Shown: positions 1 through 62,342, counted from the stretch's first letter. The stretch: 64,000 bases of DNA from a virus (IMGVR_UViG_3300031578_000013:1-64000); one strand, 5' to 3'. Notes: generated by a model not told the origin, from the sequence alone. Program-made: numbers and translations.

Positions 1-2
1 GG

Positions 3-278
3 GCACTCGCTGTAAAGCATGGTCTCAATGATGAAGGTATTGTCGAAGGCGTAATCCAGTTCATCGTTATCGCTGTACTGATCGTCTTTGTTCCGGGTAT
101 CCTCTATGTGGTCAGCACTGGAGCAATCGAAGTTCCTGTTGGAACAATCTTCTACAACGCATCGCAATCAACCAACACAAACGTTGCAAACGGTGTTTCA
201 ACGATTGGTGTGATTCCCACCATCTTTGCCATTGTGCTCATCATCGGTGTGCTCATGTTACTGGCAATGAGGAGATAA
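3..278 (+). CDS. Putative major capsid protein, paralog 1 (5'-truncated by window)
   Basis: Manual translation: ...ALAVKHGLNDEGIVEGVIQFIVIAVLIVFVPGILYVVSTGAIEVPVGTIFYNASQSTNTNVANGVSTIGVIPTIFAIVLIIGVLMLLAMRR*. Two hydrophobic helices, a loop with an NAS sequon and a basic C-terminus. Near-identical to 307..651. Confidence 0.7.
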   Translation, partial: ALAVKHGLNDEGIVEGVIQFIVIAVLIVFVPGILYVVSTGAIEVPVGTIFYNASQSTNTNVANGVSTIGVIPTIFAIVLIIGVLMLLAMRR

Positions 279-482
279 CCCTAAAAACATTTTTGGGGGT
301 ATTCTCATGTTTCTCAAAGAAGAACTACAGTCGAAGATGGAAAGTATTCGTTCTGGTGTTGAACCAACCGTTCGTAGAATGGCAAAGAACGCTGGGGTGA
401 ATGATGATGCAATAGTGGAAGGTGTCATCCAGTTCATCGTTATCGCTGTACTGATCGTCTTTGTTCCGGGTATCCTCTATGT
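54..482 (+). repeat. 56-bp perfect direct repeat (54-109 and 427-482) shared by the two capsid-like paralogs
   Basis: ATCCAGTTCATCGTTATCGCTGTACTGATCGTCTTTGTTCCGGGTATCCTCTATGT is identical in both genes. Confidence 0.95.
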
Positions 483-651
483 CGTATCAAATTCTGCGAT
501 AGATATCCCAGTGAACACTACGTTCTACAACGCAAGCATTACAACAAATACTAATGTTGCAAACGGTGTGTCTACCATTGGTGTGATCCCGACTATCTTT
601 GCGATAGTTTTGATCATTGGCGTGCTCATGTTACTGGCGATGAGACGCTAA
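307..651 (+). CDS. Putative major capsid protein, paralog 2 (spindle-virus helix-hairpin type)
   Basis: Hydrophilic N-terminal leader, two hydrophobic helices separated by a loop with NTT and NAS sequons, C-terminal RR. Same architecture as the fusellovirus VP1/VP3 pair. Confidence 0.7.
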   Translation: MFLKEELQSKMESIRSGVEPTVRRMAKNAGVNDDAIVEGVIQFIVIAVLIVFVPGILYVVSNSAIDIPVNTTFYNASITTNTNVANGVSTIGVIPTIFAIVLIIGVLMLLAMRR

Positions 652-717
652 TAAATTTCAAAACATAGTACAAAACAACGAGATTTCCCAAAAGGGGTTT
701 GGGTAAAAACCCCACTT

Positions 718-1581
718 TTAAGTGCCACTTCGTCTTCCCCATTGTTGATCTAATAAAGAACCATTTGGATATCGAATGTTATATTCTTCTAACGACAACA
801 TGCATTTATTTCCATATTCAAGTGCGATAGTTTCTCGCAATCTCGTTTCAAATTCCGGTTTGTTGCCTTCTCTCGCATGACACGATTTACATAATGTTGC
901 AAATAACCATCCGGATTTATTATTGTTACAGCATGTGGATTTATCACGTGTTACATGATGGACACTCATGTGTTTGTTGTCATTATCTTCTATCCCGGCT
1001 CTACAAAATATGCATTTATTTCCATATCTCGCCCTTACACGCTTTCGGATTTTTAATATCGGATCTGTCCATTTCTTGCAATATACACCAGCCGTTGCAA
1101 ATCTTTTCCAATCTTCTTCTGGGATACCCTGGTGAGATGCACTCATTTTCATTCTGATGTCTTCTGATATGCTCATACCAACATGACACTCTGCAATTTT
1201 TCCTTTCATCTCATCAGAAAAACTCTTTCCATAATTGTGATTCTTCTCACCGCTTGTCGCAATCCTAATCTTCTCTTTAACCTCCTCTGATAATTGTTTA
1301 CCATAATTATAATGCTTCTCCCCTCTATTGGCATCACCAATCGCCTTTTTTATATACTCTGGTCTGTGCGTTCCATACAAAGGATTCTTATCACCTCTTC
1401 GCGAATCCCCGATTTTCTTTCTTGTCTCTTCTGAAAATACCTTCCCAAAATTGTGATTCTTCTCACCAGAATGTGAGAGTCGCATTTTTTCTCTCGTGGC
1501 ATCACTGGCTGTGTGTCCCGTTCTTGCAAGCCTGTTTTTTTCCAGGTGTTCCGGAGATTGTTTGTAACCTTTCTTTGGCAT
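718..1581 (-). CDS. NUMOD3-repeat HNH homing endonuclease
   Basis: Repeated GEKNHN(F/Y)GK..SEE.K.KI motifs; C-terminal CxxC...VHH...LCKSCH. Confidence 0.85.
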   Translation of the reverse strand: MPKKGYKQSPEHLEKNRLARTGHTASDATREKMRLSHSGEKNHNFGKVFSEETRKKIGDSRRGDKNPLYGTHRPEYIKKAIGDANRGEKHYNYGKQLSEEVKEKIRIATSGEKNHNYGKSFSDEMKGKIAECHVGMSISEDIRMKMSASHQGIPEEDWKRFATAGVYCKKWTDPILKIRKRVRARYGNKCIFCRAGIEDNDNKHMSVHHVTRDKSTCCNNNKSGWLFATLCKSCHAREGNKPEFETRLRETIALEYGNKCMLSLEEYNIRYPNGSLLDQQWGRRSGT

Positions 1582-60085: not shown

Positions 60086-60909
60086 TTGCTATAACTCGCC
60101 CCCGCATTGTTTTACTGGTTATTGCAGCATTTGGATTGCTGGTATCCACCGCAAGTGCAGTTGTATCCTATGCTCCGGCATATTCGGGGTTGACAATGTA
60201 TGGTGATTGTCCCGGCGGGGCGATGGTATGTCTTGGGTTTCCCATAGAGTTTGTCTATTTTTATAATTACATATCTATCGGATTCTTATTTCTCATAGCA
60301 TCGTCTGCTTCGGAACGTAATTCATCATTCTTTGCGATTTTGCTACCATTGTTCGCTGGTTTGTTTGCATGGTGGAGATGGCTTGTTCTGCCGTCATTCG
60401 AGCAGGTGGGTGGGGTGATTATATGCTGCGCTGTGCTTGCCGTTGCGATTTATATAAAGAGTAAACAGCAGGAGAAGTTTGGTATCGCAGGGCCGGGGTC
60501 GCCCTTCCTCAACATCGTGTTCTGGATGGTGGTGGTTCAGGCATCGATTGGTTTTATTAATTCAATGGGGATGTTTGAATATAACGTGATGGTTACACCA
60601 GATGTATTCCAGAATGTCGTTCTCGCAGACACCGTGGCAATGCATGTGGGTGCGGGTGGGTTGTGGTCGGCAATCACATCGGTAGCATATCTCACAGGTG
60701 GGCTTGCAATATCGGCGCTAATGATGATGATAAATACTCTGCTGGCTATCGTGTACTTCAAGGGGTTGGTGCTGAGTATAATTCCATTCGCAGGAGGTAT
60801 TCCGGTTGTGGAGAATATGCTCACGGTTATAACTGTAGGGATTGATGTTGTAATTATATTTGCGATATTCTTGTGGCATTACAAACCAGGAGCGGGTGAA
60901 ACTGTATGA
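60082..60909 (+). CDS. Multi-TM membrane protein
   Basis: About 7 hydrophobic segments. Confidence 0.75.
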   Translation: MIAITRPRIVLLVIAAFGLLVSTASAVVSYAPAYSGLTMYGDCPGGAMVCLGFPIEFVYFYNYISIGFLFLIASSASERNSSFFAILLPLFAGLFAWWRWLVLPSFEQVGGVIICCAVLAVAIYIKSKQQEKFGIAGPGSPFLNIVFWMVVVQASIGFINSMGMFEYNVMVTPDVFQNVVLADTVAMHVGAGGLWSAITSVAYLTGGLAISALMMMINTLLAIVYFKGLVLSIIPFAGGIPVVENMLTVITVGIDVVIIFAIFLWHYKPGAGETV

Positions 60910-61163
60910 GTTCTCAATCTTTTATCGGGTATGCGATCATCATCGCGTTCTCGCTCATCATCTGGGGAATGGCTGGATATGCAATAGATTTGATAGTACC
61001 GTGGGGCAACAGATTTCTAATAGGGTACGCGCAAAGTCAGGATAGTTTAAACACGGCGCACCTATTACTTCAGATTGTCGTTTCATCGCCATTCATCGGA
61101 CTGCTTTTGTGGGGCTATGATCATATCAACAATTCAAACTCTCAATCTGGAGGGGATAGATAG
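60906..61163 (+). CDS. Small two-TM protein (possible minor virion protein)
   Basis: Helix-loop-helix hydrophobicity. Confidence 0.65.
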   Translation: MSSQSFIGYAIIIAFSLIIWGMAGYAIDLIVPWGNRFLIGYAQSQDSLNTAHLLLQIVVSSPFIGLLLWGYDHINNSNSQSGGDR

Positions 61164-61441
61164 TGGCATCGGCACAGGCAAAAATGGAGGCGATGGCACT
61201 CTGGGTTGGGGGTTCAATTTTATGTCTGACAATGTCATTCTTCGGTACGCCATTATGGAGTATCATCAATGGCATCAATTCAGCATTCCATATCACCGGG
61301 GAAATGGGAATGAGCAATCTTCACAGCGTCCAGCCAATTCCAATGATCTACTACGGCTTCCTCGTCGTGTTCGAAATTGCCCTTATCGTCAGAACAGCCT
61401 TTGTGGTATGGAGCTCTGGTAGTTATGAATCGGGGTACTAA
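61163..61441 (+). CDS. Small two-TM protein (possible minor virion protein)
   Basis: Helix-loop-helix hydrophobicity. Confidence 0.65.
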   Translation: MASAQAKMEAMALWVGGSILCLTMSFFGTPLWSIINGINSAFHITGEMGMSNLHSVQPIPMIYYGFLVVFEIALIVRTAFVVWSSGSYESGY

Positions 61442-62171
61442 TACACTACTCGATAGATTGCAGACATCCAACATAGCAACCTTCGTAGACAAACATCACC
61501 AGAGTATCTTTCTACTATGGATAGTGTTGTGTGCACTTGGCATTCTCATAACTCCTGTTGTTGCAATTCCGACAACAGGTGCAGCAACTCTAGTAGGAAG
61601 TAACAACGCCACACTTGCAGCGACAGGTGGTGGTGTAGATTGTTGGTTTACGTATGGTACTAATTCTGGCAATCACTACTGGATCACCCCAAACACCACA
61701 GCAGCCGCAGGAGTGTTTTCACAGAGGATACACTCTGCTCCATTGACGGGCAACACCTTATGGTATTATGCAGCGTGTGATGAAACGGGTTGTGATGCCG
61801 AACAGTCATTCTTCACCTTACCCGTCACTCCACTCCAACAGACAAACATGGGGGGGTTCTATCGCAACATAACGCAGAGTGGTTTTAATATTCCTAACAT
61901 GGCTGCGAACTTGATAGGCCCGTATGTCTGGAATACCAACATCCCACTTGTGATCGTGTTCCTGCTTATCTTCATGCCCGTATTTGTTGGGATCTGGTTA
62001 CGGAGCAGGAGTGCTATCATGGTGATGATTACAGGTTTCATCACTGGGAGTTTTATCCTGTATGCAGACAGGGGTTTGCAACTTGGGATTCCGCCTGATG
62101 TGGTGCAGGTGGCACAGGCGATGTGCTACGTGGCGTTCGCCGGGGCTGTGATTTATATATTGAAGAGATAA
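61377..62171 (+). CDS. Membrane protein with extracellular beta-rich (FN3-like) domain and 3 C-terminal TMs
   Basis: WFTYGT...LTGNT..YY.A pattern with sequons; true start probably downstream (~61425). Confidence 0.65.
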   Translation: MPLSSEQPLWYGALVVMNRGTNTLLDRLQTSNIATFVDKHHQSIFLLWIVLCALGILITPVVAIPTTGAATLVGSNNATLAATGGGVDCWFTYGTNSGNHYWITPNTTAAAGVFSQRIHSAPLTGNTLWYYAACDETGCDAEQSFFTLPVTPLQQTNMGGFYRNITQSGFNIPNMAANLIGPYVWNTNIPLVIVFLLIFMPVFVGIWLRSRSAIMVMITGFITGSFILYADRGLQLGIPPDVVQVAQAMCYVAFAGAVIYILKR

Positions 62172-62342
62172 CATTTTCTTTTTCCCGCGTGTGGGGTTCT
62201 GTTAACTTGGTGAGGGATAAAAATGAGTGTTAACCAGAGTGGGATAATCAATAGAAAGAACTCGATTTTTCCTTGGTATAACAAAATCAATCATAATATT
62301 ATAATAATGGACTCCCCCAATAGTCAATTGAGGCAGAAACCC

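Follow-up and report, generated by a model that had tools for sequence, protein, structure and literature searches.

The 64-kb stretch of DNA analyzed here, IMGVR_UViG_3300031578_000013:1-64000 (the window), is made up of bases 1-64000 of a single 76,161-bp IMG/VR contig, and our favored reading of it, whose chances we put at somewhat better than even, is that it comes from an undescribed tail-less double-stranded DNA (dsDNA) virus from wet soils with an anaerobic archaeon as host, of the spindle type and with a circular map of about 83 kb. This reading was arrived at from what was found in the gene content, in the synteny with relatives, in the circular map, in the absence of head-tail genes, and in the occurrence of a PAV1-type ATPase in relatives and in reads; that the virion would have the shape of a spindle is suggested by analogy. 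A first-pass annotation made from the window had proposed an unusually large spindle-shaped virus of a methanogen, probably cut from a circle larger than 64 kb. That the window was cut from something larger is indeed the case, and both ends of the 76,161-bp contig also cut genes, the first base being intragenic and the last 100 bases being the start of a signal-peptide gene.

The coat-protein candidates are the products of two tandem paralogous genes on the + strand at the very start of the contig. Paralog 1 (3-278), whose 5' end is cut by the contig start, has two transmembrane (TM) helices and one N-x-S/T sequon in its loop, and the 91 residues present are 100% identical in amino acids to the product of L003:9622-9972, the full-length ortholog being 116 residues long (L-numbers denote metagenome loci of relatives; the coat-family metagenome scan yielded 31 loci). 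Paralog 2 (307-651), of 114 residues, has a leader, TM1, a loop with two sequons, TM2, and a C-terminal RR. The plan of the paralogs is a charged helical leader of about 35 residues, a hydrophobic helix, a loop of about 25 residues, a second helix, and the C-terminal RR, and the AlphaFold 2 (AF2) model of the 307-651 protein (predicted local distance difference test, pLDDT, 81.6) consists of a leader helix and a helical hairpin. The genes are repeats that are 77% and 81% identical in nucleotides with a spacing of 373 nt; in amino acids both hydrophobic helices are nearly identical and it is the leader and the glycosylation loop that differ. In SSV1, VP1 and VP3 likewise have an annotated 61-bp direct repeat in common. 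A small (about 70-120 residues) and very hydrophobic protein of two alpha-helices and a loop, which has been described as a trait of spindle viruses (PMC9894754, PMC10848311), is therefore present, as is the VP1/VP3-like trait of adjacent paralogous coat genes bearing sequons, with an AglB-like gene 1 kb downstream. In one isolated spindle virus the coat protein was assigned from the TM-helix profile alone (PMC13612827).

These two genes are by far the most conserved ones of the group. The candidates are 90-91% identical to their counterparts in L022 and L023, and the adjoining genes are 32-85% identical in L022 and 34-54% in L023. Among 5.8 billion proteins the coat family was represented by 80 homolog clusters with 53-99% identity, all of them metagenomic, and a profile search of 1.8 billion representatives added a few distant members of 70-111 residues. 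Searches of IMG/VR and of the species genomes by sequence and by profile gave no match, so that the relatives come from the metagenome scan only. By analogy of architecture and context, the two-helix proteins probably serve as the coat. Removal of the leader by a prepilin peptidase was considered and not adopted, because the sites of that peptidase are expected to have a basic residue before the hydrophobic helix and the residues found there are acidic (NDEG and NDDA). In L003, 1 kb upstream of the coat genes and within the region that is missing from our contig, there is also a two-TM protein of 96 residues with three N-x-S/T sequons in its loop (L003:8337-8627), which may be a minor coat-like protein.

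The circular map was obtained from relatives. IMG/VR classes the 76,161-bp record as a linear virus and the contig has no exact terminal repeat, direct or inverted. L003, a contig of 39,972 bp, is 83-91% identical in nucleotides to the virus contig wherever the two have sequence in common. The terminal 146 bases of the contig (76016-76161) match L003 2716-2854 and its initial 652 bases match L003 9695-10346 with the orientation unchanged, so that L003 connects the end of the contig to its start via 6.84 kb. The same order is seen in L022, where a homolog of 73996-74289 is followed by the ATPase and then by a coat gene. Since both relatives bridge the end to the start, the map would be circular and about 83 kb long, as the first-pass annotation had expected of a circle larger than the window, and the contig would hold about 92% of the virus genome; the closure of the gap is deduced from these alignments. 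Logan contigs from four soil-metagenome runs were also mapped to L003:1-10400, and in run X1, which contains 97% of the sampled words of window 1-10000, pieces with 126-159x depth that are about 87-92% identical to L003 were found over much of the gap. A Logan contig with a 6-nt insertion at L003:2810, which corresponds to the two extra residues of the signal peptide in the studied strain, extends past L003:2854 and hence beyond the end of the virus contig.

The expected morphogenetic ATPase had not been seen in the window by the first-pass annotation, which thought that it might lie outside, and both points held. Only two P-loop proteins are encoded within the window (38103-38879 and 49857-50597) and both are recombination ATPases of the AAA_24/Sak4 type. 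The gene lies not only outside the window but also outside the contig, in the 6.8-kb gap: all five relatives with sequence upstream of the coat genes encode, 2-3.5 kb upstream of these, an ATPase of 360-400 residues with the Walker A motif GPMRAGKTT and the Walker B motif FFFDE. This protein matched PAV1 ORF375 (6e-13 in tblastn and 1e-11 to 1e-15 in phmmer) and PHROG 22963 (8e-30), and PAV1 was the sole matching record among 50,697 phage and virus records. In run X1, one Logan piece with the apparent depth of the studied strain covers the ATPase gene (5713-6802 of L003). The family comprises 39 clusters, all metagenomic, on contigs of up to 63 kb. By ESM Atlas features and by the model predicted there, the ATPase lies near clusters of DUF87, HerA, and FtsK; an AF2 model made from an alignment of five sequences was poor (pLDDT 39), and a sequence search of the PDB with the ATPase profile gave no match. 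A role of this ATPase in assembly or in DNA loading would be in keeping with these relationships.

The membrane and structural genes were reported by the first-pass annotation to be on the + strand at both ends of the window, and this was confirmed. In a hydropathy scan of a greedy set of open reading frames (ORFs), 15 of the 23 genes at 1-7600 and 56400-62200 had at least one TM segment compared to 21 of 123 elsewhere in the window (odds ratio 9.1, Fisher P 6.8e-6), which amounts to 10.1 TM segments per 1000 residues at the ends and 2.1 in the middle. Nearly all of the end-region genes are on the + strand, the exceptions being those at 3064-3840 and 718-1581. The view that the membrane modules at the two window ends are one structural arm, running from about 56 kb to about 7.6 kb and split by the contig break, is supported. 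The synteny with relatives reaches from this arm into both of its flanks, to 11.5 kb on one side and back to 74 kb on the other.

The absence of terminase, portal, and HK97 capsid genes, also claimed earlier, was upheld when every ORF of at least 250 residues in the whole 76-kb contig was scanned with Pfam and PHROGs, and again when six-frame hidden Markov model searches were done with PF03354, PF03237, PF05065, and PF04860 (TerL_ATPase, Terminase_6N, Phage_capsid, and Phage_portal), none of which gave a match. Thus, the large terminase, the portal, and the HK97-fold capsid by which Caudoviricetes are recognized were found neither in any ORF nor in any of the six frames, and a double jelly-roll capsid gave no match in the general Pfam and PHROGs scans, which were the only ones to cover it. 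Scans of the large ORFs in the bridging region of the relatives with Pfam and PHROGs did not reveal head-tail genes either. As to a type IV secretion system (T4SS), for which the flanks were likewise to be checked, VirB4/TrbE (PF03135) and DUF87 (PF01935) are absent from the contig and no coupling protein turned up in the general scans, that family having had no dedicated search; a VirB4/TrbE-class ATPase, a coupling protein, and a short-loop pilin, the marks of a conjugative system, were thus not found.

Two further parts of the structural arm bear on how the virion might be built. Next to the sequon-bearing coat genes is a gene (1689-3056, + strand) for an STT3/AglB-like oligosaccharyltransferase of 455 residues, which matched Pfam STT3 at 2e-7 (31.3 bits, above the cut-off). 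It has about nine TM helices and a C-terminal domain, a DxD motif (DTD), and a GDYGYW motif that resembles WWDYG, and it gave weak phmmer matches to four archaeal AglB structures that covered both the TM and the C-terminal parts. Orthologs are found in L022 (45%) and in L014 (24%) and not in L003 or L023. The other part is a second membrane and secreted operon (56490-62171, + strand), known from the hydropathy scan and from PKD and PHROG matches, which encodes a secreted protein of 188 residues, a PKD glycoprotein of 1010 residues, an 8-TM protein of 275 residues (60082-60909), hydrophobic proteins of 85 and 92 residues, and a membrane protein of 264 residues. The 1010-residue protein has 42 sequons and PKD domains (2.7e-31), its N-terminal domain matched PHROG 17517, a 'tail protein' (2.5e-21), and among the solved structures matched by its PKD domains is a Methanosarcina S-layer protein. 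It is a probable receptor-binding fiber.

A scheme that would accommodate these features is that the shell of the virion is built, as in lemon-shaped viruses, from two small glycosylated hydrophobic proteins of two helices each, which would be matured by removal of the N-terminal leader. The 1010-residue PKD glycoprotein, together with other secreted or anchored glycoproteins, would form terminal fibers or adhesins, and the virus-encoded AglB-like enzyme would help to glycosylate both the coat proteins and the fibers. The gap, just upstream of the coat genes, would hold the gene for the homolog of PAV1 ORF375, a P-loop ATPase of the HerA/FtsK-like type that may act in assembly or in loading of the DNA, and the arm at 10-55 kb would supply replication, recombination, and DNA modification functions of a bacteriophage-like kind along with homing endonucleases.

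Several observations weigh against this reading. The virus is known from its sequence and no virion has been seen. Neither the coat candidate nor 17 members of its family, distant ones included, matched Pfam VP1_VP3 (PF06281) or His1_capsid (PF25665) by hmmscan or in six frames, Foldseek of the coat model against viral models gave no match at E<=0.001, and from the PDB sequences the coat profile retrieved chance matches only. When the coat family was compared by hhalign to a reference alignment of known coat proteins (SSV1 VP1, SSV1 VP3, His1 VP21, and PAV1 ORF121), the E value was 5e-4 over 63 columns and the reversed control was better, at 2e-5, and therefore the signal is one of composition and architecture; homology of the candidates to known spindle coat proteins is accordingly not demonstrable from these comparisons. 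The ATPase gene is absent from the 76-kb contig itself and its family is also found on pTN2-type plasmids of Thermococcales. No single read or Logan contig closes the 6.8-kb gap, the assembly lacks independent confirmation of continuity at 12-56 kb, and the CheckV completeness of 75% for the 76,161-bp record implies a genome of about 100 kb. The host assignment draws on a single insertion sequence (IS) element, and the G+C content of the virus is about 41%, compared to about 55% in cultured Methanoregula. On the other hand, the other two-TM proteins of the genome matched the alignment of known coat proteins with P 0.035 at best as against 5e-4 for the candidates, and the named ESM Atlas clusters nearest to the 307-651 protein were His1_capsid and VP1_VP3 (score 0.85), which we take as a lead only. 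Of the spindle-type morphogenesis proposed in the first-pass annotation, then, the non-head-tail character and the architecture and context of the coat genes stood, and a demonstrable homology of the coat proteins did not.

Since spindle coat homology is unproven, the particle may be of another kind, namely enveloped, pleomorphic, or novel, with the two-helix proteins in the envelope or matrix and the glycoproteins as spikes. A structural arm made up entirely of membrane and secreted proteins would suit such a virus, as would its type-I anchored glycoproteins (3064-3840 and the 498-residue protein in the L003 gap). We nevertheless regard it as unlikely, because the extreme conservation of the two-helix protein and its layout of leader, TM, loop, and TM fit spindle coats best, and the only homolog in an isolated virus, that of the ATPase, belongs to the spindle-shaped PAV1; moreover, the known pleomorphic archaeal viruses have genomes of 7-17 kb. 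Less probable, and to us a rather poor fit, is that the DNA belongs to a large plasmid or to an element resembling conjugative ones; the two-helix proteins would then act as pilins of the VirB2/TedC-like kind, the ATPase would serve DNA transfer, and the polytopic proteins would form a channel. A leader and two hydrophobic helices are also what VirB2-type pilins consist of, members of the ATPase family are found on plasmids of the pTN2 type and its ESM neighbors include DUF87, FtsK, and TrwB clusters (TM scores 0.59-0.62), and the 8-TM protein at 60082-60909 could be such a polytopic protein. However, the contig has no VirB4/TrbE or DUF87 match, and the ATPase of the relatives, with 364 residues, is smaller than VirB4, which has roughly 600-800. 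The loop of the candidates is long and sequon-rich like that of SSV1 VP1/VP3 and unlike the short and basic loops of pilins, PHROG families are densely packed in the replication arm, and the record is entered in IMG/VR as that of a virus.

In its replication and recombination genes the contig looks like a typical tailed phage, and this raises the question whether we are dealing with a head-tail virus whose structural genes are diverged or missing, or with a chimera of a phage-like arm and an archaeal membrane cluster. The match of the N-terminal domain of the 1010-residue protein to a PHROG 'tail protein', the CheckV completeness of 75%, and the lack of independent verification of the contig middle would be in line with this. 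It is, however, very improbable in our view: no ORF looks, by its size and nature, like a terminase, portal, or HK97 capsid gene, the 6.8-kb bridge of the relatives is also without head-tail genes, the gene order of the relatives is kept from the structural arm as far as 11.5 kb in one flank and 74 kb in the other, and composition, GC skew, and strand bias are uniform. The G+C content is 36-46% throughout the contig, the GC skew is positive almost everywhere, and the + strand holds 81% of the called coding bases. The spindle-type virus thus remains the reading that we prefer.

An archaeal host is well supported by the sequence, because of the AglB-like gene, the PAV1-type ATPase, and the relatives of the IS element. 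This element, of the IS6 family (62195-64000, + strand; DDE_Tnp_IS240, 7.9e-16), is inserted after the second operon and its transposase gene (63525-64631) extends beyond the window end. The closest cellular copies of the transposase, with 78-79% amino-acid identity, are in metagenome-assembled genomes (MAGs) of Methanoregula and Methanoregulaceae, the next match is 68% in an archaeon, and then come matches of 52-57% in Nitrososphaerota and Bathyarchaeia. That the host is a methanogen of Methanomicrobia, possibly Methanoregulaceae-like, is plausible but unproven. Of the methanogen host suggested earlier, the IS6 element gives a hint, and the searches for spacers and proviruses gave nothing to add to it: among 401 genomes of the phylum of the Methanoregula MAG, spacer-like DNA yielded three matches of 38-45 nt with 82-87% identity, which is at chance level, the flank of one of them (L052) is without CRISPR repeats, and no provirus was found in 185,579 species genomes with the coat, core 282-residue, and ATPase profiles. 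The only match that the core and ATPase profiles gave in the species genomes was a 2.5-kb contig mis-binned to Rhodoferax. The LRQPEVS motif of a winged helix-turn-helix (wHTH), which had been taken to point to Methanomicrobia, is indeed present, in an ORF of 110 residues at 47006-47338, but it is a generic feature of the wHTH and could be tied to no taxon. Contig names and run labels indicate that the relatives stem from metagenomes of soil, of lake or wetland sediment, and of the landfill type, and among the sequencing runs no RNA datasets were listed.

Among known viruses, the nearest point of contact is PAV1, a lemon-shaped virus of Thermococcales (candidate family 'Osirisviridae'), whose ORF375 ATPase has a homolog in the relatives and, by reads, in the gap. 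Both have a small two-TM coat-type protein and lectin- or adhesin-like secreted proteins, and head-tail genes are found in neither. PAV1 differs, however, in its size (18 kb as against about 83 kb here), in having no phage-like enzymatic arm, in an ATPase identity of only about 25%, and in that no other PAV1 protein has a detectable homolog here, its coat protein ORF121 being unlike the candidates; of the PAV1 core set (ORF121, the ORF137/ORF375 cassette, ORF898, and others) the ORF375 ATPase alone was matched, and only in relatives and in the gap. The ORF375 family has also been reported in a provirus of Methanococcus voltae A3, in Methanosarcina barkeri, and in haloarchaeal plasmids (PMC3543421, PMC2926602). 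As the family is on plasmids as well as viruses, it is a marker of archaeal mobile elements and not of viruses alone. SSV1 VP1/VP3 (Fuselloviridae) and His1 VP21 (Halspiviridae) have in common with our candidates the pair of hydrophobic helices, the loop with N-x-S/T, the basic C-terminus, and the arrangement as tandem paralogs; the SSV1 VP1 precursor also has a leader and SSV1 VP3 shows a local resemblance in TM2. In contrast, these families gave no Pfam match and a profile similarity no better than the reversed control, their genomes are of 14-17 kb, and their ATPases are DnaA-like AAA+ proteins and not of the ORF375 type. In SSV1 and Huangdivirus, sequon-bearing coat proteins occur alongside viral glycosylation enzymes (PMC10848311).

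Bicaudaviridae (ATV and STSV1/2) are of comparable size and have circular dsDNA and, if our inference holds, the spindle morphology in common with this virus. Their coat is a different protein, a soluble helix bundle, and the match of the coat model to an ATV structural protein in Foldseek was non-significant (E 0.81). The genomes of STSV1/2 are about 75-76 kb, that of ATV is 62,730 bp (PMC12662068), and that of PBV144, a tepeuvirus (candidate Tepeuviridae) of ANME-1 archaea, is 72.6 kb and not yet closed (PMC9894754). The description 'unusually large' is therefore too strong, as genomes of similar size (62.7 kb in ATV, 72.6 kb in the tepeuvirus, and about 75-76 kb in STSV1/2) are known. In spindle viruses of ANME-1 the genome is divided into structural and enzymatic arms, and a PAPS reductase is one of the auxiliary genes (PMC9894754). 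Itzamnaviridae and Tepeuviridae thus resemble the virus studied here in their large two-arm genomes, PAPS reductase, and methane-cycle hosts, and the itzamnaviruses have two coat genes; what sets them apart, by description, is that they encode family B DNA polymerases, whereas here there is a primase-polymerase with a D5-type helicase. Eurekaviridae, a family of the spindle type that has two coat genes and a methanogen as host, was ratified by the ICTV, the international body for virus taxonomy, in March 2025 (PMC12451623), and its MSSV1 (PQ167755) is, by description only, alike in being a metagenomic spindle-type methanogen virus with a circular genome and two coat copies. In IMG/VR, the profiles of the coat, core, and ATPase proteins picked up no relatives, and GenBank virus records had no match to the coat protein or to the core proteins of 182 and 282 residues.

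Distinctive of this large mesophilic virus are its ATPase of the ORF375 type, its coat family, which is without detectable named kin, and the AglB-like enzyme that it encodes beside the coat genes. Of the earlier proposal of a new lineage combining spindle-type morphogenesis with a large accessory genome, the lineage is sustained, apparently at the level of a family, but the split into structural and enzymatic arms had already been described for ANME-1 viruses, so that this is a new, apparently family-level lineage of an already recognized kind of virus. It is conceivable, though we put this a little short of even, that this genome founds a lineage of archaeal viruses at family level, with a two-helix coat, a genome of about 83 kb, a phage-like arm, and its own AglB-type enzyme glycosylating capsid and fibers. 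If so, the lineage would be widespread in wet soils, sediments, and landfill metagenomes, its genome of about 83 kb would be one of the largest known for the two-helix coat type, and the virus would glycosylate its own capsid and fibers and not rely on the host enzyme alone. Very few viruses of soil and wetland methanogens have been characterized, and the ICTV vote of 2025 ratified just one family of spindle-type viruses of methanogens. There are at least 80 coat clusters and 39 ATPase clusters in public metagenomes and, besides the studied contig, no relatives in IMG/VR; in GenBank virus records the ATPase alone found a match (PAV1), and therefore the group is abundant but unrecognized. It would add to the evidence that hydrophobic two-helix coats can package genomes of more than 80 kb and it links the PAV1-type ATPase to mesophilic viruses, and the virus-encoded oligosaccharyltransferase makes a testable case and would be of use in studying N-glycosylation in archaea and the way in which virions come by their glycans.

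The remaining genes of the structural arm are in part shared with the relatives. A secreted protein of 258 residues with a C-terminal TM anchor and four sequons (3064-3840, - strand), recognized by hydropathy and by its orthologs, is 89% identical in L003 and 32% in L022, and a related domain is found in L023. It is followed by a core module of small membrane and soluble proteins (3911-7566, + strand) of 162, 45, 182, 55, 64, 282, 73, 62, 50, 92, and 108 residues, which is syntenic in L003, L022, L023, and L014 with 30-100% identity and which matched neither Pfam nor PHROG families and has no homologs among the phage and virus records of GenBank. Beyond it is a short tyrosine recombinase of 202 residues (8224-8832, + strand; PHROG integrase, 3.7e-9) with more than 100 homolog clusters, some of them PF00589, which are all metagenomic except for one protein of a mis-binned MAG; none is in a named archaeal genome. 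It is an integrase or a dimer resolvase, and it may resolve dimers instead of integrating the virus. The contig beyond the IS6 element encodes further small membrane proteins and a protein of 1409 residues (contig 69035-73264, L001:7035-11264) that had no Pfam, PHROG, or PDB sequence match and whose position recalls that of the large proteins that neighbor ORF375 in PAV1 and in plasmids of the pTN2 type. Within the gap, L003 also encodes the anchored secreted protein of 498 residues and several small membrane proteins. The taxon names attached to cluster members were of no use. A 4,607-bp contig (L036) in a MAG of 'Williamwhitmania sp.' (Bacteroidales) is 99.87% identical to contig 62043-66649 and by this identity is a mis-binned virus contig, and a 57-kb contig of 'Proteiniphilum sp.' with coat and ATPase genes is probably a virus mis-binned likewise.

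The enzymatic arm (10111-55000, mostly + strand) was delineated by the Pfam and PHROGs scans, and the genes listed here all had PHROG matches of the bacteriophage type. On the + strand it encodes a SprT-like protein (19381-19791), DNA methyltransferases (20058-20642; 43684-44745 plus 45428-45727; 45752-46513), a topoisomerase-like protein (22523-23644), an RNA ligase (24479-25357), a radical SAM protein (30537-31595), the two Sak4/AAA_24 ATPases already mentioned, a Cas4-type exonuclease (39295-40434), an SF2 helicase (41682-43364), and the PAPS reductase (52982-53980), and on the - strand the primase-polymerase fused to the D5-type helicase (35511-37778). No tRNAs and no Rfam families were detected. 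There are at least three HNH endonucleases, encoded at 11733-12296 (- strand) and at 40975-41688 and 44755-45453 (+ strand), and a NUMOD3/HNH homing endonuclease (718-1581, - strand; Pfam NUMOD3, 5e-29, and PHROGs homing endonuclease) adjoins the coat genes. The latter is a selfish insertion, which L022, L012, and L014 also have and which L003 lacks. This load of homing-type endonucleases, one NUMOD3/HNH and three HNH, is unusual, and the HNH gene at 44755-45453 sits between the halves of a split N6/N4 methyltransferase (43684-44745 and 45428-45727).

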